From the IMG/VR virus record IMGVR_UViG_3300037483_000112, positions 1 to 28,617 of that record: a stretch of DNA of 28,617 nucleotides. The stretch is one strand, 5' to 3'. The DNA is from a virus. Taxonomy: Duplodnaviria > Caudoviricetes. Under the pieces are notes generated by a model. The model did no database searches. It saw only the letters and a program-made list of their open reading frames with translations, and was not told where the DNA came from. The translations under genes and the position numbers were made by a program. Positions within the stretch are counted from its first letter, which is position 1. Every line of letters starts with the position of its first letter. Shown piece by piece: positions 327 through 13,939 of the stretch.

Positions 327-530
327 ATGGCAAAGGACGATCTCCAGATTGAGCGTCACCAAGCCATCTCGGGCAAGACGCAGGTTGCCAGCTCCGGGGC
401 TATCCAGCTCGTGCCGGGCTACAACTATGTGGACGGTCGCAAGCAGTCTCCGTCCCCACGGTCCGCAAGCCAGAAGGGGCGCAAGGGCAATGCGCCATCT
501 CCATCCAGCCGTGGTGACAGGGGGGAATGA
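327..530 (+). CDS. small hypothetical protein (67 aa, MAKDDLQIERHQ...SRGDRGE)
   Basis: 3' part of track ORF 15..530; ATGA overlap with the next gene; C-terminus resembles that of the next gene. Confidence 0.5.
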   Translation: MAKDDLQIERHQAISGKTQVASSGAIQLVPGYNYVDGRKQSPSPRSASQKGRKGNAPSPSSRGDRGE

Positions 531-817
531 TGCTCTACCTCTTCGCCGTGCTGTTTGCCGTCTTCCTGGCCCTGCCTGCTGCGGCCGAGCCCGGCGGTTC
601 CCAGGATCGCGAGAGTCGGATCAATGCCAGGGAATCCAAGGCAAGCGGCAACCAGACCCCATACGGCTTTACCCAGGATGTCCTGCTCGGGACCGGGCCT
701 AAAGGTGCGGAGGGCGGCCACGCCTTCAATCAGCCGGTAGGCAGGGACAATACGGATGCGCGGGGAGCAAAGGGTGCCAATGCCAATACCGGCAGCCGAG
801 GCGCCCGCGGCGAGTGA
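527..817 (+). CDS. small secreted Gly-rich protein with Sec signal peptide
   Basis: Hydrophobic N-terminus LYLFAVLFAVFLALPAAA ending in an AxA site; AGGGGGGA RBS; ATGA coupling. Confidence 0.7.
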   Translation: MMLYLFAVLFAVFLALPAAAEPGGSQDRESRINARESKASGNQTPYGFTQDVLLGTGPKGAEGGHAFNQPVGRDNTDARGAKGANANTGSRGARGE

Positions 818-846: not shown

Positions 847-1143
847 TCACCCGATCTCCAGCTTCCCCATCAACCGGTAGCCGTAGCCCCATTGGTTCTC
901 AATCGTTACCGGCCAGCCCACGATCTTGCGCCGCATGTTGCACACCGGCACGGCGATTGAGTTCTTCAGGTCTTGCGGAAACTGGCCGGGCCAGATGGCA
1001 CTGCCGATGCGCTCCAGCGGCATGAAGTGCTCCCCGCCCTGCCGCAGGACGCCGAGTATCTGACATTCCTGAGGCGTCAGCCTCGCCACGAGGCCGTTCC
1101 ATAGCAGCCGGCCGTCTCCGGGCACGAATACGACGGCGCTCAT
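847..1143 (-). CDS. stand-alone OmpR/PhoB-type winged-helix DNA-binding protein (CtrA C-domain-like)
   Basis: RLTPQECQILGVL...SIAVPVCNMRRKI...IENQWGYGYRL fits the Trans_reg_C pattern (LTxxE, recognition helix, xxxGxGY wing); no receiver domain. Confidence 0.8.
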   Translation of the reverse strand: MSAVVFVPGDGRLLWNGLVARLTPQECQILGVLRQGGEHFMPLERIGSAIWPGQFPQDLKNSIAVPVCNMRRKIVGWPVTIENQWGYGYRLMGKLEIG

Positions 1144-1823: not shown

Positions 1824-1970
1824 ATGAAATACCTTATAGCTATGGCGATTTTCATGCTCGCCGCACCCGTCCTGGCCTGCCCGGCCAAGGACCCGCAGGC
1901 CGTTGCCGCGCCCCATATCGAGCCCGCGTCGGTTGGGCAAGCGATAGCACCGCAGGGGCCGAAGGGGTAG
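1824..1970 (+). CDS. small secreted protein (48 aa, MKYLIAMAIFMLAAPVLACPAKDPQ...QGPKG)
   Basis: Hand-translated, missed by the track; strong GGAGGA RBS; classic signal peptide ending VLA. Confidence 0.7.
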   Translation: MKYLIAMAIFMLAAPVLACPAKDPQAVAAPHIEPASVGQAIAPQGPKG

Positions 1971-1980
1971 ACTGCCAGAC

Positions 1981-2277
1981 ATGCGATGGTCGCTCGCCCT
2001 GCTTTTTGTCGCCCTATCCGTCGCACCATCAGTTGTCGTCTATAACCGCATCCTGTTGCCGGCCGTAGCCTATGAACATGCGGGCGACCCCTGGTGTCGG
2101 CATACCGCGCCCAAGGCGCTCTGCAAGCCGATGCGTTGGACGATAGACCGCGACCCGCTCTGCCTGTTCGCGCCGAACGATGCGGCGGAATGTCCGATGG
2201 CCGAGTACGATCCGCTCGGCATCCTCACTCCCGAGGAGCCAGAACGCCGCCGGTCAACAGCGCTGCCGGACGGGTAA
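1981..2277 (+). CDS. membrane-anchored/exported Cys-containing protein, candidate superinfection exclusion protein
   Basis: Hydrophobic N-terminus, 4 Cys; convergent with the last ejection gene (53-nt overlap), like sieA after gene 16 in P22; shares YDPLGIL with the ejection protein at 4281..5426. Confidence 0.6.
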   Translation: MRWSLALLFVALSVAPSVVVYNRILLPAVAYEHAGDPWCRHTAPKALCKPMRWTIDRDPLCLFAPNDAAECPMAEYDPLGILTPEEPERRRSTALPDG

Positions 2278-4291
2278 TTCCTCCGGCCAGGAGCCCGCGC
2301 ATAGCCCCCGATGTGCTGCTGCCAGCGCTTTGGGCAATCAGATTCGCCAGGGTCAGCCGCACGACGTTTGGATCGGCCGAGAACAGCATGGGCGCCAGCT
2401 CGTCCGCCGTTGCCGATGTCATGCCCTGAGAGCGGCGCAGAATCGTGTTTGCAAGTTGCCCCCCCGCGCCGCGAAGATCGCCCGTCATGAGCGCGCCCAA
2501 CATGCTCGGATCGGTCGACATATCAGCCTTCTCCGCCTCGATCCGCGCCGTAGGCGACCCGCCTCGCACGAATTGAGCCGCCGAGTACATCTGTTGCTCG
2601 CGGCCGATGCTCATCAGGAATTGATTGAAGCTGGCTGCATTCGGAAAGGCTGCCTTCACCTTGTCGCGGAATGCCTCCTTGTTGAAAAACCGCTTCACCA
2701 CGTCCGCGCCGTCCGGTGCAGAGTCGATCCTGTCCTGAATGGCCCGGACCACGCCGAGACGGAAGAAATCCTTGTCCGCATCCGACATGCCGGCAACACG
2801 GGCGGTCGACAGCTCGGCATCCGGGCTGAAGATGTTTCGGCCAAACGCCATCGCGTCGAGCGACTGGCTGGGGCCGGAATAGGCGTCGAGCGCCTTGCCG
2901 TAGACCGGGACCAGTTGCCGCAGTTCATTTCTCATTGCAGTGCGCGTGGCGTCGATTGCCCGGCCGGATTCATCCAGCCGCAGCCGGCCCGTCACGGGGT
3001 CGCGGTATTGCTCGATCACGTCATCCAGGCCGCGCTTGACGTAATCCCATGTCTGCATTGAAGGAGTCTTGACCAAGTTCGCCTCGCCGGTCAACTGATC
3101 CCAGCTAATGCCAAGGTCGGCGGGATCGCGCCCCTCTTCAGCGGCGATACGGTAGGCCCGCGCAAGGGCTGCCTTCATGGAAGGCCGCTTAATCAGCGCG
3201 TCCAGGGTTTCGTTTGTGACGTTGACTGACAGATACGCTTCATCGTACAGCGGCGCCGCGTCTTGCGCCCGCTTGGTAATGATAGCCTGCATCGTCGGGT
3301 AGAGTTCCTCGCCGGTCTGTCCGAGAGCGGTTTTCAGGTCCGCCGCAACCCGTGTCGATTGTCCGCCGCCCATGCGTACGGGCACGCCGCCCACGTCTAT
3401 CTGCGGACCTTCCTGCCGCGTGCGCAACAGCTCTGTCGCTTCCTGCCTCGCCGCAGAGGGAATGCTATACGCGGCTCTCGCAAGCCCCTTCAGGTTCTCG
3501 CCACCAAGCTCAAACAGGGCCTCCGGCTTCGCACCGCGCATACGCCAGTTGTTGTAGCGCACCAGCGCGTCTTCTGGCGTGATGTTGTCACGCTCCATCG
3601 CTCGCAGGATTTGGTTTTTCGCGGACTCCTCGACGTTCCTGAGCCCAGCAAAATCAGCCACCTTGCCGCCGACCTTGCCAGCCGCAACGATAGCGATGGG
3701 CAAGAGGGCGCCAAGCGCGCCACCCGCCCCGGCACCGAACAAGCCACCTTCAACGCGCTCCGCGGCCCCGCCTTCAGCATGACCAATACCGGCCAGACCG
3801 CCGTAGCCCGCGCCCGTCGCGGCGCCGGTCTTTATCGTCTGCGGGAGCGTCTGCTTGACCAGCGACGTTGCGAGCTTGGCGGGAGCGGTAGCGAAGCCGC
3901 CCGTAAACTCAGCGAGGGTGGAGGCTATCGGCGCCTGCTCTTGAAACGCCTTCAGGTCTGAGCGCTTCTCAGACAGGATGCGATCGTAAGCCTCGCCCAT
4001 CTGCGGCGCCTCACCCGAGAGCATGTTTCTCAGCGCTGCACCAGTTGCGCCGCCGGCCGCGCCAACCTCATCGGCGAAACCGAACGTAACGCCCTGTTCG
4101 ACGGCGCCGGCCAAGCTCTTCAGATAGCCCGGCGTATCAATGCCAAGGCCCTTGAAGAACCCGGCACGATCTACCTTGCCCTTGTAGTTCTTCTCATAGT
4201 AGGCATCGATGAAGTCACGATCCTGCATCGCCTGATATTCAGGCCGGGAATTCTTCAGGGCGATGAGCTTGGTCAGGGCCTCATTTGGCAC
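2225..4291 (-). CDS. large DNA ejection/internal virion protein (P22 gp16 position)
   Basis: Long Ala/Gly-rich helical ORF with QGVTFGFADE and Gly-rich hydrophobic segments typical of podophage ejection proteins; GTG at 4291 with GGAGG RBS preferred over the track start 4357. Confidence 0.75.
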   Translation of the reverse strand: MPNEALTKLIALKNSRPEYQAMQDRDFIDAYYEKNYKGKVDRAGFFKGLGIDTPGYLKSLAGAVEQGVTFGFADEVGAAGGATGAALRNMLSGEAPQMGEAYDRILSEKRSDLKAFQEQAPIASTLAEFTGGFATAPAKLATSLVKQTLPQTIKTGAATGAGYGGLAGIGHAEGGAAERVEGGLFGAGAGGALGALLPIAIVAAGKVGGKVADFAGLRNVEESAKNQILRAMERDNITPEDALVRYNNWRMRGAKPEALFELGGENLKGLARAAYSIPSAARQEATELLRTRQEGPQIDVGGVPVRMGGGQSTRVAADLKTALGQTGEELYPTMQAIITKRAQDAAPLYDEAYLSVNVTNETLDALIKRPSMKAALARAYRIAAEEGRDPADLGISWDQLTGEANLVKTPSMQTWDYVKRGLDDVIEQYRDPVTGRLRLDESGRAIDATRTAMRNELRQLVPVYGKALDAYSGPSQSLDAMAFGRNIFSPDAELSTARVAGMSDADKDFFRLGVVRAIQDRIDSAPDGADVVKRFFNKEAFRDKVKAAFPNAASFNQFLMSIGREQQMYSAAQFVRGGSPTARIEAEKADMSTDPSMLGALMTGDLRGAGGQLANTILRRSQGMTSATADELAPMLFSADPNVVRLTLANLIAQSAGSSTSGAMRGLLAGGITRPAALLTGGVLAPRE

Positions 4292-5426
4292 TGGAGCCTC
4301 CGAGGATACCGAGCGGGTCATAGTTGGGATCGGTTGTCGGATCGCCCGCGCTGACACCGCCGCTTGCCAAGGGCACGATGATCTTGCTGGGGTCGATCAT
4401 GTACTTCTTGGCAATGTCGCTGTAGCTCTGCACCATCGAATCATACTGGTTCTGATAGACGGCGTATTGCTGTTCAGCCGCTTGTACGAACTGCTGCCGC
4501 TGCTCGGGCGTCAACCGCACGCCTCTCAGAATATTGTTGTATGTCGCCGTGATCTGGGCAGGAACGCCGGCCGTCTGCTCGGCCGTCGCAAACTCGCCTT
4601 CTCGCACCGTTGAACTGGGATCAATGGTCTTCATGAAGCCGAAGACCAGGGCCACGTCACCAGCACCCGTGTTGAGCGTTGCAGCCGAGCGGACCTTGTT
4701 GAGGCCAACCTGCGCCTCGCGTACCGGCTTGGTATGCGCGATAAACTCATCCCGCAACGTATTCTCATTCTTGAAACCTGCCTCGCCGCCGCCATCTTCG
4801 CCCGGCGCTTTCGACGGCATGCCGAGAGCTTCGCTAGGATCACGCCAGACCATCGTCTTGGTATTCGGGTCATAGACTTGGATCGGCGCGCGCGGGGCCG
4901 GGGGCTGCTGCGGCGCAATATAGGTATCCTTCTTCAGCAGGGCGTCGTACTCGGCTTGCGTGATGCGGCCCGCCTCAAGATCGGCCCGAAGCTTACCGGC
5001 CCCGGACTGCGCACCGCCGCCTTCCATTTGCTTCATGACGTAATCGCTGGCCGCAGTAAGCGCGCCATCAACATCGCCGCCTGCGTAGCGGGTCCGCACG
5101 ATGCTGTCGACCTCCGGCGGGAGCTGGTTGGTTTGCAGGTACTTCTCAACCGCGTCCGCCATCTTGTCGCGCTGCTCTTCGGTAAGCGCAGCCTTTCGCT
5201 CGTCGCGCTCCAGCCCCCGGAGCTGAAGGTCATAGAGCTGGTCCTGCCGCTGCTGATTGAGCGCGCCCTGCTGGCCCTGCTGGAACGCCCCGAGACCGCG
5301 CCCGAGGCTGGACAGCACACCCCCCTGCCCGCCCTGCATCAGGGCCGAGCCTAAGCTGAGAACGCCCTGGCCGAATGCCTGCCGGCGGGGATCGGTAGCG
5401 GGATTGGAGAGAACGCCGAATGCCAT
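4281..5426 (-). CDS. DNA ejection protein (P22 gp20 position)
   Basis: GGAGG RBS; Gly/Gln-rich N-terminus, coiled-coil-like middle, DPSSTVREGE motif, C-terminal DPLGI; synteny. Confidence 0.7.
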   Translation of the reverse strand: MAFGVLSNPATDPRRQAFGQGVLSLGSALMQGGQGGVLSSLGRGLGAFQQGQQGALNQQRQDQLYDLQLRGLERDERKAALTEEQRDKMADAVEKYLQTNQLPPEVDSIVRTRYAGGDVDGALTAASDYVMKQMEGGGAQSGAGKLRADLEAGRITQAEYDALLKKDTYIAPQQPPAPRAPIQVYDPNTKTMVWRDPSEALGMPSKAPGEDGGGEAGFKNENTLRDEFIAHTKPVREAQVGLNKVRSAATLNTGAGDVALVFGFMKTIDPSSTVREGEFATAEQTAGVPAQITATYNNILRGVRLTPEQRQQFVQAAEQQYAVYQNQYDSMVQSYSDIAKKYMIDPSKIIVPLASGGVSAGDPTTDPNYDPLGILGGSSAK

Positions 5427-5435
5427 GTCTGCCTC

Positions 5436-6407
5436 CTACCACCAGCCGCCGGCCAAGCCGAGTCCGCCGATCCCGAGGCCGAGCCCGCCGAGCTGGGCAA
5501 GCAGGTTGTTCTGGCTCGGCTGTGTCGACGTGCTGGTCCCGCCAACCGTCCCGCCGGAGATGAGCGCCATGTACCGGGCGAGCTGGTCCTGCGGACTCTG
5601 CTGGGCAAAGTCGAACCGCTCGCGGTCGGCGTTGATCTGAGCCTGCCCGTACTGGTCACGCATCTGGCCGGCCTGTCCCACGGCGGCGATGTCCTGATAG
5701 TCGGTCGCGGCCAGGCTGGGAGCGTTGCCGGCCGCCGCTTCCTGGATGCCCCGCTCCTGTCCGTAGGTTCCCGCGAGGGCGCCTGCCCCGGCTAGACGGT
5801 TCGCCACGTCTTGCTGACTGAGGCCGCCGATAGCCTGCTGAGCGTTAAGCTGATTGGCTCGCTCCTGGTTATAGGCCCCGCCGTACATTCCCGTAGCGAG
5901 CTGGTTCAAGCCCTGCTGGAACGTGTCCTGATGGGCGCCAGACCCATACCGGCCGGCGCCTGAAAACAGGCTATCGACATTCGACCGGATGTTGCCGGCG
6001 GCCTGATTGAACGATGCATCCAGGTAGGGGTTAGCGCCGATGAAATCTCCCTGCGCAGTGGATTGCAGCATCCCCAAGGCTGGGTTGACATAGCCCCCCT
6101 GGGCCGCCTGGGAAAAGTACGGATTGGCAGGATTGGCGTTGAGGTACTGCCCGCCAACGGTGCCCTGCTGCTGCTGCTGCGCTCCCTGCACAAGCGGGTT
6201 GCCGGTCATGCCCCTGCTGGCGAGCGCGCCGATCCCGGCCTGCGTCTCCGGGCTCTGGGGGGCCAAGGTCGAACCGGGATAGAACGACGGGCCGCCCGTC
6301 TGGTACTGGTTTTGCGCCTCGCCGAGCCCGTACTGGATATAGGGCTGGGCATACTCCGGGGGGTCGTTCCGCTGGACGACCGTGTCAGAACCGCCGCCGC
6401 CGCTCAT
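5436..6407 (-). CDS. DNA ejection/pilot protein (P22 gp7 position)
   Basis: MSGGGGSDTVVQ..PPEYAQPY start, repeated NPY motifs, Gln/Gly/Ala-rich, hydrophobic Gly-rich C-terminus; GAGGAG RBS and ATGA overlap at 6407. Confidence 0.7.
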   Translation of the reverse strand: MSGGGGSDTVVQRNDPPEYAQPYIQYGLGEAQNQYQTGGPSFYPGSTLAPQSPETQAGIGALASRGMTGNPLVQGAQQQQQGTVGGQYLNANPANPYFSQAAQGGYVNPALGMLQSTAQGDFIGANPYLDASFNQAAGNIRSNVDSLFSGAGRYGSGAHQDTFQQGLNQLATGMYGGAYNQERANQLNAQQAIGGLSQQDVANRLAGAGALAGTYGQERGIQEAAAGNAPSLAATDYQDIAAVGQAGQMRDQYGQAQINADRERFDFAQQSPQDQLARYMALISGGTVGGTSTSTQPSQNNLLAQLGGLGLGIGGLGLAGGWW

Positions 6408-6847
6408 AGGTCTCTCCTCAGGATAACAGCAGTTGACCACTCGGGGCCGAGCACCTTGGCCCAGCCCTGCCGACCGTGGCGGACCTCAAGCCCGTCGCAG
6501 CCTTCGGACCGAGCCCATGCCATCAGGACGGGCAGGTAGTTGAACCACCGGTCCATGCCCTCGCCGGCCAGAAGGAACAGGTTGCACAGCAACCGGCGGG
6601 GATATTTGGCAATCTGAGTGATGCAGATGGCCTCGATCCGGTCGCTCTGGGCCACATGAAGCTGCATCCGCCGCTCGATTAACGCTGCCTTCACGTCCTC
6701 GGGCCAATGCGTGCCGGAGCAGTATTCCAGGCCCAAGGCCACAAGCCCCTCGATCTCCGGCCAGACGGCCTCGATCCGGTCGGATTTGACGCCGATCAGG
6801 ACAGGCAGACAGTCCATTGTTTCACGTGAAACGGACTGTGATTTCAC
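6404..6847 (-). CDS. phage GNAT-like fold protein preceding the ejection genes
   Basis: VWPxI...QL...TQIxxYP...AG..W...WARxxGC...GRxGW pattern of the small protein usually found before podophage ejection genes. Confidence 0.65.
   Translation of the reverse strand: MKSQSVSRETMDCLPVLIGVKSDRIEAVWPEIEGLVALGLEYCSGTHWPEDVKAALIERRMQLHVAQSDRIEAICITQIAKYPRRLLCNLFLLAGEGMDRWFNYLPVLMAWARSEGCDGLEVRHGRQGWAKVLGPEWSTAVILRRDL
6818..6833. promoter_or_regulatory. parS: parS-like centromere palindrome
   Basis: TGTTTCACGTGAAACG matches 15/16 of the bacterial parS consensus TGTTTCACGTGAAACA; perfect 14-bp core. Confidence 0.65.
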
Positions 6848-8022
6848 TTCTTCCCGCCCTTGCTGCCCGTGCCCTTCGGCCCGGCACCGGCCGAGCCGCC
6901 GCCACTGCTCTTCCCGCCGCCCTTTTCCTTCCCACCGCCCTCGTACCCACCGCCCTTGCCAGCGCCGGCCTTAGCAGACTGTCCTGCGGCAGCTGAGCCA
7001 GATTTGCTCGGACTTGTCCCCGTCGTCGCATTCCCGACCCCATAGCCCTTGGCGAGCCCCCCGGCTTGGGCGGCGGCCCTAGCCTCGGAGGAACTTGCGC
7101 CCGCCTGCATGGACTTATCGACCTGAGCCATCATCTTGCCGAGCGAGGAACTAGCCGGGATTTGCGAGGAGCTGGTGACGTTCACCCCCATGCTCTGTGC
7201 CAAGGCAATCTTGGCCTTCTCGATAGAAGCGGCCGAAGCCGGGGCAGGAGCCGCCAGGGCGCCCGCTGGGGCCGTGGGAACCGCCATGCCAGGGGTAGAG
7301 GGCGTGGTGGCAAGAACGCCGCCAGTGGCCGTAGGCGTGCCCGGAGCGGGGCCTGAGAGCACGCCACCGGTGGCCGGGCCGATAGCCCCGGCCGGGTTGA
7401 ATTCGTTCACCAGGCTGGCCGCCTGAGCCCTGGCCGCACCCATCACACCGGGGTCCATCATGTTCTGCATCCCGGTATAGCCGCCGACCCCGAGTTCGCC
7501 GTAGCCGCCGAGCCCCCCGGCATAGGGGCTGTCCCCGAGGAAGCCACCGGTACCGGCGCTCAGTAGATCGCCCGTGCTGAGGTTGATCGGCTGACCGGTG
7601 ATCTTGGACATCATGTCGGCCTGCTGATTGGCCGCCTGGACACCGGAAAGAGCATTGCCCGCCGTGACCAGCGATCCCGCACCGGGGATGAGCGCCCCAA
7701 GACCAGCCCCGATCAAGGCGGCCGTATCCGAATAGCCCGGCGCGTAACCCGGATTGCCCTGGCCGAGCCCGCCGGGATTGTCATTGTTCCCGCCGGGGTC
7801 GTTGATCTGACCGCCCTGAAGCACCCCGCCGCCGCCCTGGCCCGGCGCCAGCACGCCACCGGGGGCGGGGGTTTGCGGCGCTGCACCCGCGCCAGCGCCG
7901 GGCTGCCCGAACGCGCCGGGGGTGTACGGGCTCTGGTACTGCGGCGCAGCCTGGAATGGGTTATAGGCGCCGAGCTGCTGGCCGCCGAAGCGCTGGGAGA
8001 AAAGCTCAAACGGACTAGGCAT
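6844..8022 (-). CDS. Gly/Ala/Pro-rich low-complexity putative virion (internal) protein
   Basis: Long ORF in the structural block; ATG at 8022 (MPSPFELF) preferred; hydrophobic Gly-rich segment and Lys/Gly-rich tail. Confidence 0.6.
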   Translation of the reverse strand: MPSPFELFSQRFGGQQLGAYNPFQAAPQYQSPYTPGAFGQPGAGAGAAPQTPAPGGVLAPGQGGGGVLQGGQINDPGGNNDNPGGLGQGNPGYAPGYSDTAALIGAGLGALIPGAGSLVTAGNALSGVQAANQQADMMSKITGQPINLSTGDLLSAGTGGFLGDSPYAGGLGGYGELGVGGYTGMQNMMDPGVMGAARAQAASLVNEFNPAGAIGPATGGVLSGPAPGTPTATGGVLATTPSTPGMAVPTAPAGALAAPAPASAASIEKAKIALAQSMGVNVTSSSQIPASSSLGKMMAQVDKSMQAGASSSEARAAAQAGGLAKGYGVGNATTGTSPSKSGSAAAGQSAKAGAGKGGGYEGGGKEKGGGKSSGGGSAGAGPKGTGSKGGKK

Positions 8023-8233
8023 GCTTCCAAACCCCTTGATACCCTTGTGCGGCCAGCGCCTTGCGCCAACGGTCGAAAGCCGAGCTGTTCGGTAGCCCAT
8101 CAGGCGTGGTCAATCCGGTCTTGGTATCCAGGAAGATCGCGACCTGTCCGGACGACATACCCTCAAGCTCCGGGAAATGCGGGAGCAGCAAGGGCACGAT
8201 CAGCGTGCGGTCGGTACGGGCCGGCATGTCCAT
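8015..8233 (-). CDS. hypothetical protein (72 aa)
   Basis: Fills the gap between neighbours with tight spacing; no motif recognised. Confidence 0.45.
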   Translation of the reverse strand: MDMPARTDRTLIVPLLLPHFPELEGMSSGQVAIFLDTKTGLTTPDGLPNSSAFDRWRKALAAQGYQGVWKHA

Positions 8234-10189: not shown

Positions 10190-12249
10190 GTCGCCCTGGT
10201 GATCGAGGTCGGAGTGGTCGCATCGTTTAGGGTGAACGTCATCGCGCTCGTACTGCCGTCGAGTTTCTTGGCCGTGAGCGTGGTGCTGGCAACCGACTTC
10301 TCCGCAAGCATCGCCCAGATCATGTAGAGAAGTTCTGCCATCGTCGCCGTGGCGCCATCCGTTGCATAGCCCTCCGTAAGGGCAGCCGAGCCTGTCGCCG
10401 ACAAGGTGTAGCCGGTCTTGGATGCGGCAGCGACGACAACGCCATCAGTCCCAGTGTCAGCGAGGATGCTGTCGACATTGGCATCAACCGTATCGACGCT
10501 GGCTTGTGTCGCGAGTGCCGTGAGCCCGGCTCCCGCCATGCCAATCTCCGCCGTGTCAATGACGATCGCGTCCACGATGCCATCCACGGTGTCCACACTG
10601 GCCTGCGAGGCCCTAGCATCAAGGATGAGGTCGAGGCGCCCGCCATTGGCCCAATCGGTCTGTAGCTCGTTCGTATCGGCCAGGATCGCCGCGACCTCGG
10701 TGTCGACCGCCGCCAGGATGGCCGCAACTTCCGTGTCGAGGAAGTCGTCGATCGTGTTGACGCTTGCCTGCGTTGCCAAAGCGGTCAGGCCCGCGCCGGC
10801 AGTCCCAATCTCTGCCGTATCGACCAGGATCGAGTCGATAATGCCGTCCACGGTATCAACGCTGGTCTGCGTTGCCCGGCTGCTGATCGTGGCGTTGATG
10901 TTGTCGCCGATAATCTTGCCGGCCGTGCCCGCCCCGTAGGCGCCTGGAAGCGCCGTGATCCACGGATCGCCGGCCGTGCCCGCCGCCGCCAAGGCTTCGC
11001 CTGTCGAGCCCGCCCCAGCATGCCCGGACAGAACTTCATCCCAAACAGCGTCAGCAATGCCAGCCTCGGTGAGCGCGGAACCGCCAGCGTTGTCGGCGAT
11101 CTCCTTGACCACGGAACCGGCAACGGCGGACGCGTAAGTCGTGCCACTGTCGGTATCGAAGAAGTCGGCAAGAGCGGTCGCGGTCAGACCGTTGATGGTT
11201 CCGCCAACATTGCCCGTGACAGACCCCACCGCGCCCGTGACGCTGCCGACAGAGCCGGAGAGATTGCCGGTGATGCTGCCGACGATGTCCATGGTCTGAT
11301 TGGGCAGGTTGATGTTCGTCAGCCCCGCGCCAGCCGTGCCGATCTCGGCGGTATCGACCAGGATGGAAGCAACCTCCGTGGCAATCTCACCGAAGGTGCC
11401 GGCGCCGACGTGGCCAGATTGCAGTTCATCCCAGACGGCATCCGCGACTTCGCCAGCGGTCGGCGCCGATGCGCCAGGAAGCGCGCCAAAGGCAAAGATG
11501 CTGTACGTGCTGGTGACGTCCGGCGTCACGACCCAATTGCCATTGACCGTGGCAACCTTGGTCGATCCGACATAGTCGCTGATGAACCGCGCCTGATTCG
11601 CACCGGTGCCGCCGCTAATCCATATCAGCGTGTTATTGTAGAAATCATCGTCGGCAGAAGAGCCAGACTGAAGGGTTATTGTTCCAGCCGCTCCTGCCTG
11701 CGCCGTATCGGCGTCGATAAGGCCATGCACAAGGTTGAGCGTCGTGTTGACGCCGTTTGCCAAAGTGCGGATTGAATCGCCGCCCGCCGAATCACCCACC
11801 GTCTGCCCGAACGTACCCGATGTCTGATGCCCGGTTGCGTCTTCGTCCCACACTTCGTCGACAATCTGGTCGATCTGCGCTGCCGTGATCTCCGCAAGCC
11901 CGCTCGCCACCGTCAACGTCTCACCGGCTGTGATCTTCGGCCGGTACAGCTCAATCGTGCGCGTCACTGGCGCCATGCCCGCATGCGTGATGTGGAACAC
12001 CATCTCCTGGCTGTCGTCGCCGGCGTCTATCGTCATGTCCTCGTCGAGCAGCAGCTCGTAGACGCCGGGCATGTTGGTGGCGTCGGTCTCGTTGATCGTC
12101 GGCGTGGTCATGGCTGCGGCGGCGCCGCCGTTGCGGGAGCGGTAGACCGTGAACGTGGTGAGACCGGTCTCGCGCGTCTTCAGGTCCGTCGCGTCGACCC
12201 CGACAAAGTACACATATTGGTCAACTACGCCGCTCGGAATACGCATCAC
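10186..12249 (-). CDS. repeat-containing acidic virion fibre/appendage protein
   Basis: 687 aa, rich in Thr/Ala/Gly/Asp; repeated [AD][DE][AE]VWDE-type and DTAEIGxAGAGLT motifs; tail-region synteny. Confidence 0.65.
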   Translation of the reverse strand: MMRIPSGVVDQYVYFVGVDATDLKTRETGLTTFTVYRSRNGGAAAAMTTPTINETDATNMPGVYELLLDEDMTIDAGDDSQEMVFHITHAGMAPVTRTIELYRPKITAGETLTVASGLAEITAAQIDQIVDEVWDEDATGHQTSGTFGQTVGDSAGGDSIRTLANGVNTTLNLVHGLIDADTAQAGAAGTITLQSGSSADDDFYNNTLIWISGGTGANQARFISDYVGSTKVATVNGNWVVTPDVTSTYSIFAFGALPGASAPTAGEVADAVWDELQSGHVGAGTFGEIATEVASILVDTAEIGTAGAGLTNINLPNQTMDIVGSITGNLSGSVGSVTGAVGSVTGNVGGTINGLTATALADFFDTDSGTTYASAVAGSVVKEIADNAGGSALTEAGIADAVWDEVLSGHAGAGSTGEALAAAGTAGDPWITALPGAYGAGTAGKIIGDNINATISSRATQTSVDTVDGIIDSILVDTAEIGTAGAGLTALATQASVNTIDDFLDTEVAAILAAVDTEVAAILADTNELQTDWANGGRLDLILDARASQASVDTVDGIVDAIVIDTAEIGMAGAGLTALATQASVDTVDANVDSILADTGTDGVVVAAASKTGYTLSATGSAALTEGYATDGATATMAELLYMIWAMLAEKSVASTTLTAKKLDGSTSAMTFTLNDATTPTSITRAT

Positions 12250-13103
12250 GCTATCCCATGCTCAATGCCGGAGAGGCCGCGGGACAGACCCGCGAGGCCG
12301 GCGGTTATCGGGTGGAGACCCTGCATCAGAAAGTCATCGCCGCCAGGGGCGGCAGCCGGCACGCTGACGATGGTGCGGCTTGGCAGCGGCTCCCACAGCG
12401 CGAACGGCTGCTCGGCCAACAGCCATATTTCAGAAGGCGTAAGCGCGCGTCTCGGCCACGACAGGAACTGGATGTAATTTCCAGTCATGCTCCCGGAAAA
12501 GCCGGTGCCGAGATACAAGTTAGCGCCCGTTGCGGTGGCGGTGTTTGTGTCTGCGCTTGTCCCGACTCGAACACCGTCCTGGTAGAACTGCCAATTGTTT
12601 GTGGCGTCCCACACACGGGCAGCGCAAAAAACCTTCCCATTCGCCAGAGGGACGCCTGACGTGGCATAGGCGCCTGGAGTAAAGAAAGACAACCGCCCGC
12701 TGGTAACGTTACTGACTGAGATTAGTTCTGCTGGATTAGAAAAATCTGCAAGCGCTGACAGATTGTAGATTGAGCGCGCAGTGGCAACATTATCCAGGCT
12801 CAGCCACATGACTACTGTGTGCGGCGTGGACGCTATCTTTATGTTTGGCCCGACCTCGGCAAGAGTATCCGCAGCTGCCGCATAGCGGCGCCCTAACCCC
12901 AGCGGGCCGTTACCCCAAGTCGGTGTGCCCGCAGCGGTTGCCAGCGCTTTCTCGCCACCAGACGGACTGTAGTCCTTTGGCGCTCCCGCTCCCTCGAACA
13001 GCGGAATGGTGATCCCAAGACCTTCGGCCAGCGGGTGGTTGCGGTTAAGCCTGAACGCCCCCGGCTTGATCAGATGTGGACGAGGCGGGAGAACGAGGCC
13101 CAT
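12246..13103 (-). CDS. LamG/concanavalin A-like lectin-fold virion protein
   Basis: TVVMWL...VWD...FYQDGVRVG...LYLG..F.G...W.RRALTPSEI matches the LamG_3 pattern. Confidence 0.75.
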   Translation of the reverse strand: MGLVLPPRPHLIKPGAFRLNRNHPLAEGLGITIPLFEGAGAPKDYSPSGGEKALATAAGTPTWGNGPLGLGRRYAAAADTLAEVGPNIKIASTPHTVVMWLSLDNVATARSIYNLSALADFSNPAELISVSNVTSGRLSFFTPGAYATSGVPLANGKVFCAARVWDATNNWQFYQDGVRVGTSADTNTATATGANLYLGTGFSGSMTGNYIQFLSWPRRALTPSEIWLLAEQPFALWEPLPSRTIVSVPAAAPGGDDFLMQGLHPITAGLAGLSRGLSGIEHGIA

Positions 13104-13106
13104 GGC

Positions 13107-13604
13107 TCAGGCTGCGGTGTTGTAATAGACCGGTGTGTACTTGACGGTGTTGCCGGATGCGGCGAGAGCGGCGCCAGTGTGGTTGATGATGACCAAGCCC
13201 CACTTGGGCGGCAGCGCGCCACCGAAGGCAGCGGCAACAGAGAAGATCGCGCTTTCAGCGACCTCGTCAGCGGTCGTGTACGGAATTGTGCCGATGAGCC
13301 GGAGGTTCTGGGCGTTGGCCGTGATATCGACGAGTGTGATCGTCCCCTCCGAGCCGCTGGCCGGATTCGTGTACGTCGTCTCCAGCCCCGCATAGGCATA
13401 GACGAACACGGCCTTGCTGTTCGCTGGGGCGGTGTTGGCGAAATCCAGAACCACCTGCACCAGAGCGTCAACATAGAGGTTGGTCGTGTTGTCGACCACG
13501 GCCGACTGCCAGCCCGCCGTCGCCGACGAGGCGAGGCTGTGCAGGTTCGTCACCGTCATAGCGGTCGCGGAACCATAGACGAGCTTGGTGTCACCGGTTG
13601 CCAT
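13107..13604 (-). CDS. putative structural protein (beta-rich)
   Basis: 165-aa Thr/Ala-rich ORF ending VIINHTGAALAASGNTVKYTP; coupled to the upstream gene. Confidence 0.6.
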   Translation of the reverse strand: MATGDTKLVYGSATAMTVTNLHSLASSATAGWQSAVVDNTTNLYVDALVQVVLDFANTAPANSKAVFVYAYAGLETTYTNPASGSEGTITLVDITANAQNLRLIGTIPYTTADEVAESAIFSVAAAFGGALPPKWGLVIINHTGAALAASGNTVKYTPVYYNTAA

Positions 13605-13939
13605 CAGTTAGCTCCTGCGGCGGTCCAGGATGCGCCATCCCAGAATGATCCATAGCGGCTCCACAGATTGCGGGCCGTGATCTCTGCCTGATAGTCGGCC
13701 CAGCGCGCCTCAAGAGCGGCTCTGATCTGGGCATTAGTGCCGTTCGACCCCAGCACGTCGATGAACTCGGTCACGGTGCCGGCAGCGATGGCGTCATTCT
13801 CCGCCTGCGAGGCGCCGGTCCAGGCCGATGTGGCGCCAGTGCGGGCATAAAACGCTTCCCGTCCAGCCGGGACGGTGGCCCAGAGCGCGTAACGCACCCG
13901 GCCGCCTTGCATGTCCAGAATGATCACCTGTTTCGCCAT
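13604..13939 (-). CDS. hypothetical virion-region protein
   Basis: GAGGAG RBS; ends in YGSFWDGASWT; TGATG coupling. Confidence 0.6.
   Translation of the reverse strand: MAKQVIILDMQGGRVRYALWATVPAGREAFYARTGATSAWTGASQAENDAIAAGTVTEFIDVLGSNGTNAQIRAALEARWADYQAEITARNLWSRYGSFWDGASWTAAGAN

Follow-up and report, generated by a model that had tools for sequence, protein, structure and literature searches.

Superinfection exclusion by P22 SieA, a membrane protein, is the closest described counterpart of the gene reported here. Escape mutants of SieA map to the ejection proteins gp16 and gp20, the C-terminal 33 residues of gp20 are essential and the mode of contact is left open (PMC10883804). The ejection proteins of the gp20/gp16 group are very divergent, and how P22-type ejection proteins join into a conduit while tolerating mosaic exchange is presented there as an open question. 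Escape from exclusion in TP-J34 and HK97 maps to conduit-forming proteins (PMC10883804), and in T7 the N-terminal part of gp16 (gp16-N) stabilises the C-terminal domain of gp15 (PMC8954989). We analysed the viral record IMGVR_UViG_3300037483_000112 (28,617 nucleotides, hereafter the window), in which a plus-strand gene for a 98-residue protein runs head-on into the last of three presumed ejection genes, termed E1, E2 and E3 in this analysis, and contains the seven residues YDPLGIL that also stand close to the C-terminus of E2. An initial annotation of the window had likened this position to that of sieA beside P22 gene 16, and the coordinates agree: gene 16 (11484-13313) and sieA (13336-13830, opposite strand) are convergent and 22 bases apart, and the 98-residue gene is likewise convergent with the final presumed ejection gene. 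With a confidence that is no better than even, we hypothesize that the 98-residue protein is a decoy that copies the E2 tail and blocks DNA entry of related phages.

Both copies of YDPLGIL lie where the initial annotation had placed them (Table 1), and their DNA is identical at 18 of 21 bases. DPLGI is found at just these two sites in all six frames of the window, and YDPLGIL is the sole 7-mer common to any two of the 33 called proteins (8,629 residues). At least one shared 7-mer appeared in 16.8% of 500 shuffles of the proteome, so a bare 7-mer match is not rare; the expected number of matches is 0.003 between the 98-residue protein and all other proteins and 2e-6 between it and the last 20 residues of E2, a target picked post hoc, while the expected count of DPLG[IL] in the 98-residue open reading frame (ORF) is 4e-4. 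The proposal that the silent differences between the two DNA copies point to selection on the peptide had to be abandoned, because two independent encodings of YDPLGIL under the codon usage of the phage are on average identical at 16.8 of 21 bases (probability of at least 18, 0.31), and the DNA identity shows neither selection nor copying. When all 8,464 sites in the window proteins were scored with a matrix of the tail motif, the top three were the E2 tail (18.5 bits), residue 77 of the 98-residue protein and residue 58 of the same protein, where a second, weaker copy is located. The annotation had seen no other similarity between the two proteins; blastp-short indeed finds none between the 98-residue protein and its two neighbours, and there is no DNA similarity between its gene and the ejection gene outside the 21 bases, but the second copy had been missed.

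A search of 1.84 billion representative sequences with the 98-residue protein returned four proteins: the query itself, a homologue of 100 residues (P0070; 44% identity, E = 2.7e-12) and two others (P0071, P0072), which were rejected as repeat proteins with a compositional match. P0070 retains the hydrophobic N-terminus, the sequence AVA-[YW]-E, all four cysteines, DPLCL and DPMGLLTP, so that the single homologue keeps both motif copies. Divided by segment, the identity between the two proteins is 5/6 in the first copy, 2/12 in the linker, 6/9 in the second copy (residues 76-84) and 3/14 in the tail that overlaps E3; the motif copies are the best-kept segments. A strain variant in run X1, on a contig of depth 2.9, has 18 differences over positions 2009-2168, and of the 14 that are listed nine are synonymous in the frame of the 98-residue protein, against an expected fraction of 0.29 (p = 0.007); two of the 14 fall in one codon and a contig of such low depth can contain errors. 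In the antisense frame that shares third positions, eight of the 14 are synonymous. A second X1 contig (depth 4) matches positions 2141-2229 with 15 differences and three inserted bases; the ten differences listed with positions, the remaining five being without them, all fall in the linker (2175-2198), and the similarity stops one codon past the motif. The GC content by codon position (0.68/0.52/0.73) resembles that of E2. From the sequence evidence, we consider that the ORF is a real gene, as first annotated with its hydrophobic N-terminus and four cysteines, because it has a full-length homologue with four conserved cysteines and because the strain variant shows a synonymous excess.

The single hydrophobic segment and the four cysteines suggest an anchored or exported periplasmic domain. 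Signal-peptidase sites follow an A-x-A rule, and the AVA sequence may possibly be such a cleavage point. An AlphaFold model of the protein is unusable past the first helix (mean predicted local distance difference test score, pLDDT, 49). The ribosome-binding site is weak, and no promoter- or terminator-like sites were found in 1400-2600, a result that is uninformative given that the host is probably non-enteric. No RNA data set was listed as containing the sequence, and the single DNA run listed may itself be the origin of the window. No family match was obtained in Pfam, PHROGs or NCBIfam. A word-index search for further homologues returned the protein itself only, a search with the two-sequence alignment added P0070 only, and none was found in viral, metagenome or genome contigs or in cultured phages. 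The pattern DPLC-gap-DPxG had no match in metagenomes (with one Asp codon allowed at its start), and none of the 11 matches to DP[LMI]G[ILM]LTP is a small membrane gene adjoining ejection genes. Look-alikes in the Atlas scored 0.76 for this protein and at most 0.89 for the E3 head described below, and are leads only.

The firmer result concerns the tail that the 98-residue protein resembles. Within the E2 family (68 proteins including that of the window) tails are highly variable, and a DPLGI end is present in 3 of the 68. We scanned for an R-ending variant of the tail and collected 120 viral loci with DPLGIR before a stop codon, out of about 140 in the collection. Twenty-two were off-frame and 98 were true ORF ends, 94 of them with a callable next gene; in all 94 this gene starts with one helical head domain of about 45 residues (at least 44.9 bits). 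The head profile was built from 61 of the 94, which makes these scores partly circular; as a control, 18 loci with other tails were scored against it, and none of their 1,551 ORFs exceeds 6.6 bits. One locus with full flanks (L067) is an exception, in which a 257-residue ORF ends in DPLGIR and no head-bearing gene was called 3' of it.

The converse scan, by the head domain alone, covered 120 loci of about 390 in the collection. A DPLG-like tail lies upstream in 94 of 109 distinct entries; the 15 misses comprise six one-residue variants and nine short-flank loci in which the upstream ORF was uncalled or called in another frame. When the count is limited to the 80 loci whose flanks are complete, all 73 distinct tails upstream of the head fit DP[LAFVM]x[ILM], which was broadened after inspection of the 120-locus result, and 60 of 73 fit the strict form DPLG[IL], compared with 5/245 and 0/245 control gene ends, respectively. 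Among cultured phages, 21 records bear the head, and the six that were fetched all show DPLG[IL]R upstream, one of them out of frame. In Ruegeria phage 45A6 (L185, KT820175.1; 4352-4489), DPLGLR and its stop codon lie off-frame within the 136 bases that follow the gene as annotated, suggesting that the record contains a frameshift or sequencing error.

Among the protein bodies on which tail and head were found together, the 167 E2 sequences fall into 36 groups and the 155 E3 sequences likewise into 36, with no BLAST link between groups; both sets include duplicates. Because the pair persists on unrelated E2 and E3 bodies, these sequences point to a functional pair; tail and head lie within about 200 bases of each other, so co-inheritance contributes and one exchange shifts both. 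Binding of the tail by the head would be the simplest reading of the coupling, a reading with a precedent since T7 gp16-N stabilises the gp15 C-terminal domain, and we take the coupling as strong indirect support for docking. Some E2 tails carry the motif doubled (L021, L062, L103), so tandem motifs, as in the 98-residue protein, occur naturally. Seven E3 heads are seemingly duplicated internally (L026, L031, L057, L075, L078, L084, L128). The E2 relatives with other tails (L001-L018) have other E3 starts, which suggests that several exchangeable tail/head types exist besides DPLG. Ordinary head members match N-terminal positions 5-49 of phrog_10691 (E = 2e-8 and 8e-10); that profile extends over 3,925 positions and has no annotation, so it does not describe the head as a module, and the divergent head of the window does not match it.

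The docking site named in the initial annotation, an RPEYQAMQD segment of E3, belongs by its sequence to the head family coupled to DPLG tails. Residues P17, Y19, D24, Y36 and F45 are invariant across 32 aligned heads, and the window head retains all five. It scores 9.3 bits against the general profile, weak but the best of the window's ORFs, and 35 bits against a profile of its subtype, the scan pattern for which included residues taken from the window. From its sequence, E3 of the window appears to start with a divergent member of the head family. Its AlphaFold model has four helices (pLDDT 86) and no clear fold match (best E = 3.0 in BFVD and 4.9 in PDB, best Z = 4.8 in VIA), which does not show a new fold; the best hit of a head sequence profile search had E = 0.37. 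The subtype pattern gave eight matches, six of them in frame and two of those six being contigs used in designing it, and DP[LF]GIL lies upstream in 6/6. In ordinary tails the residue after the motif is R in 71/73 and L in 0/73, and Y precedes D in 0/73; the 98-residue protein shares both the Y before and the L after the motif with its own E2 tail.

We examined the slot directly after E3 in the 100 distinct DPLG cassettes that include downstream sequence. In 42/100 it is occupied by a short convergent ORF with a hydrophobic product, whereas the same type of ORF is found at the E2 stop, used as a control, in 12/100; at loci in bacterial genomes, mostly of Alphaproteobacteria, the slot is so occupied in 15/19. 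The motif is absent from the slot ORFs of both sets. The slot is therefore a general home of accessory membrane genes, in which a motif-bearing gene is rare. The slot ORFs encode 45-120 residues (loci L025, L049-L051, L054, L068, L078, L089, L092, L094, L140, L159, L164-L182). By eye, at least two families recur: a rhizobial 'GPGF' type (L068, L092, L166, L168, L172, L247) and an 'hKRxLh' type (L089, L140, L181, L213, L324, L327). Slot ORFs without the DPLG motif are candidates for unrecognised exclusion genes.

A close relative (locus L001 of genome G001) matches positions 1642-1970 at 88% nucleotide identity and the E2 N-terminus at 86% of residues. It has another E2 tail and another E3, lacks the 98-residue gene, and its 48-residue gene (9402..9548 of L001, minus strand) abuts E3. 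In run X1, a more abundant contig also diverges from the window sequence at 1976. The data fit a 98-residue gene that moves together with the cassette, as judged from no more than one or two events. Among the features of G001 (L321, L322) are direct terminal repeats, a repressor-like gene and a divergent helix-turn-helix gene. Judged from these sequences lysogeny is plausible, and a plasmid-like prophage state is possible.

From these observations, we propose the following model. The DPLG tail of E2 would dock in the E3 head while the DNA-injection conduit forms. The 98-residue protein, made in the lysogen or infected cell, would sit in the envelope, membrane-anchored or exported, with its motif facing the periplasm, where it would offer two copies of the tail and capture the E3 head of an incoming related phage. 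The presumed conduit would then fail to join, and phages with a matching head would be excluded. The reality of the gene, the conservation of its motif, the coupling of tail and head and the position of the gene come from sequence; tail/head binding, periplasmic topology, expression and exclusion are the parts that we infer. The decoy depends on two proteins, and the tail/head pairing is the firmer of the two results. More broadly, and with a confidence somewhat short of even, we envisage an exchangeable lock-and-key module, composed of a six-residue DPLG tail and a four-helix head and carried, with subtypes, on hundreds of unrelated podophage cassettes, and a disulfide-stapled envelope protein that would show two of its own keys and exclude only phages with the same lock.

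Several observations weigh against the decoy. The initial annotation had proposed that the motif of the decoy should co-vary with the cognate tail in related phages; this found no support, as none of the 100 other cassettes has a motif-bearing slot gene (43 of them have a convergent hydrophobic ORF in the slot, and none of these reaches 9 bits for the motif), and such a gene is likewise missing at the five loci of the window subtype where downstream DNA is present. The family of the 98-residue protein is known from two members, with the gene neighbourhood seen for one, so that any co-variation of decoy and tail rests on one genome. P0070 has T in place of Y ahead of the motif and M at its third position (DPMGLL). 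An L in the position after the motif also occurs outside the subtype: 4/6 DPLGIL-x tails precede other head types, and the link is one-way. Neither a repressor nor an integrase was identified in the window, and G001 had no match to the integrase families PF00589 and PF07508. E2 and E3 match unannotated PHROGs and, when compared by blastp with P22 gp16 and with the ~325 residues at the C-terminus of gp20, gave no match below E = 0.14, for which reasons we infer their ejection role from position. Finally, P22 SieA has no 4-mer in common with gp16 or the same C-terminal part of gp20, so that the known system uses no exact copy.

Other explanations of the locus share part of this evidence. Tail and head may both bind a third partner, such as E1, the tail channel or a host envelope protein, for which the 98-residue protein would compete; it would still be a mimic, but one aimed at another target. 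Co-occurrence cannot separate binding from co-inheritance, given that one exchange carries both elements, and L001 changed tail, E3 and slot gene together. However, a direct lock and key explains more simply why the pair persists across 36 E2 and 36 E3 groups of unrelated bodies and why the residue after the motif tracks the head subtype in one direction, and we regard a third partner as rather unlikely. The mimic could also serve the phage's own cycle, for example by retaining E3 at the inner membrane, or letting it go, in the course of injection or assembly, or by clearing a spent conduit. A motif identical to the phage's own tail would suit a protein that acts on the phage itself as much as one that acts on its relatives, and the window yielded no repressor or integrase that would mark a temperate life. 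A role in the phage's own cycle nevertheless seems to us distinctly improbable: 100 other cassettes manage without the motif gene, which is hence no core part, and the gene runs counter to the virion genes and takes the place that in P22 belongs to an accessory exclusion gene (present in 22/66 P22-like phages; PMC10883804).

The match may also be incidental, the product being a small Cys-rich envelope protein of D-P-x-C/G turns with a function unrelated to injection. The 98-residue protein and P0070 contain three and five DP dipeptides, respectively, several of them followed by Cys; some 7-mer is shared in 16.8% of the shuffles; and off-frame DPLGIR-stop accounts for 22/120 scan matches. Set against this are the expected counts (4e-4 for DPLG[IL], 2e-6 for a 7-mer match to the E2 tail), the fact that the gene adjoins the one gene with the motif's partner domain, and the two copies being the best-kept segments, and we consider coincidence unlikely. 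An origin of the ORF as a shadow frame, or by decay of an inverted copy of a stretch of an ejection gene, is very improbable and already largely refuted; the weak ribosome-binding site, the overlap with the 3' end of E3 and the lack of a promoter-like site in the region searched would suit such an origin, but the ORF has a full-length homologue with four conserved cysteines, the synonymous excess (p = 0.007) and a codon-position GC content like that of E2, and there is no DNA similarity past the 21 bases.

E1, E2 and E3 are the final three long virion genes of the window. E3 starts with GTG, preceded by GGAGG at 4297-4301, and its 3' end is overlapped by the last 53 bases of the 98-residue gene; the 48-residue and 98-residue plus-strand ORFs both point head-on into it. 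No family match to the 48-residue ORF was found in Pfam or PHROGs.

Table 1. Positions of the features discussed, in coordinates of the window.
Feature	Position	Strand	Remarks
Window, a 28.6-kilobase virus record and a fragment		minus	Terminase, portal, scaffold, major head and tail genes on this strand
98-residue gene, candidate decoy	1981..2277	plus	One hydrophobic segment, four Cys, two motif copies; ORF, homologue P0070
Hydrophobic segment, residues 3-21, predicted membrane anchor or signal peptide	1987..2043	plus	Mean hydropathy 2.01 over 19 residues; AlphaFold helix 2-25
AVA-[YW]-E, residues 28-32, possible signal-peptidase site	2062..2076	plus	Kept in P0070 (alignment)
Second, weaker motif copy DPLCLF, residues 58-63	2152..2169	plus	9.3 bits, rank 3 of 8,464 sites (tail-motif matrix)
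Main motif copy YDPLGIL, residues 76-82	2206..2226	plus	Last codon overlaps the stop codon of the 688-residue gene
E3, presumed third ejection protein, 688 residues	2225..4291	minus	phrog_5880, function not annotated, E 2e-69, residues 53-650
E3 N-terminal helical head domain (~50 residues), presumed receptor of the tail motif	4142..4291	minus	P17, Y19, D24, Y36, F45 kept
E2, presumed second ejection protein, 381 residues	4281..5426	minus	phrog_13634, function not annotated; stop overlaps E3 start
E2 tail motif YDPLGIL, residues 369-375 of 381	4302..4322	minus	Six residues ahead of the stop
E1, presumed first ejection protein	5436..6407	minus	phrog_4287 'DNA ejection protein', E 9e-20
48-residue ORF	1824..1970	plus	Hydrophobic N-terminus, one Cys, strong ribosome-binding site GGAGG; 10 bases 5' of the 98-residue gene

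Elsewhere in the window, a 96-residue ORF (527..817, plus strand) begins like a signal peptide and has a Gly-rich body, and a 418-residue Gly/Ala-rich ORF (6844..8100, minus strand) between the tail and ejection genes is partly common to L001; neither matches a family in Pfam or PHROGs. A stand-alone winged-helix domain (847..1143, minus strand; Pfam Trans_reg_C, E = 9e-9) lies 3' of the virion genes, with a similar ORF in L001, and the window contains two ParB-like genes.

If the 98-residue protein does block entry by displaying the tail peptide, its exclusion specificity could be deduced from sequence, and the peptide would offer a way of halting injection at a defined stage. The domain of 45 residues and the peptide of six, which stay together on dozens of unrelated protein bodies, make a small, directly testable interface, also in cultured phages (Vibrio 1.183.O, vB_ValP_FGH, Thalassomonas BA3, Pelagibacter HTVC106P). 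A literature search for the string DPLGIR found nothing, and a search of titles and abstract openings, with most subscription papers outside its scope, found no description of the tail/head pair or of exclusion by mimicry of an ejectosome docking tail.

We considered whether the 98-residue protein belongs to the SieA family (P22 types A-C) and rejected this: blastp of it (P0001) and of P0070 against P22 SieA gave a best E of 2.6, the SieA motif FxRYPxEAxxFNK given in PMC10883804 is absent from both, and both have one hydrophobic segment where SieA has three by the same hydropathy rule. The likeness is one of arrangement, since both are accessory genes that lie directly behind the last ejection gene and converge on it; SieA is a membrane protein, as the 98-residue protein is predicted to be, and by analogy the latter would work like SieA. 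SieA is the longer protein (164 versus 98 residues), its types A-C spanning about 164-210 residues with at least three transmembrane segments, and the four conserved cysteines and the tail motif are features that it does not share. The targeting of ejection proteins has been shown for SieA, and for the 98-residue protein it is a prediction. The exclusion proteins of HK97 (gp15), TP-J34 and Tuc2009 are likewise membrane proteins that block DNA entry, but they act on long-tailed phages, and the discussion of them in PMC10883804 mentions no peptide copy of their target. In the gp15:gp16-N tunnel of T7, the final ejection protein touches the C-terminal part of the middle one through its N-terminus, as proposed here for E3 and E2. 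In T7, gp16-N takes the form of an extended 'molecular tape' (PMC8954989), whereas the head described here is folded into four helices and goes with a tail of six residues, and no sequence or fold link was found between T7 gp15/gp16-N and the DPLG tail and head. The cassette of the window fits the DPLG-tail/helical-head class defined here, with a DPLG-type end on E2 and, coupled to the E2 stop, a head on E3. While SieA excludes phages with divergent ejection proteins, the 98-residue protein is predicted to be specific to its own type.

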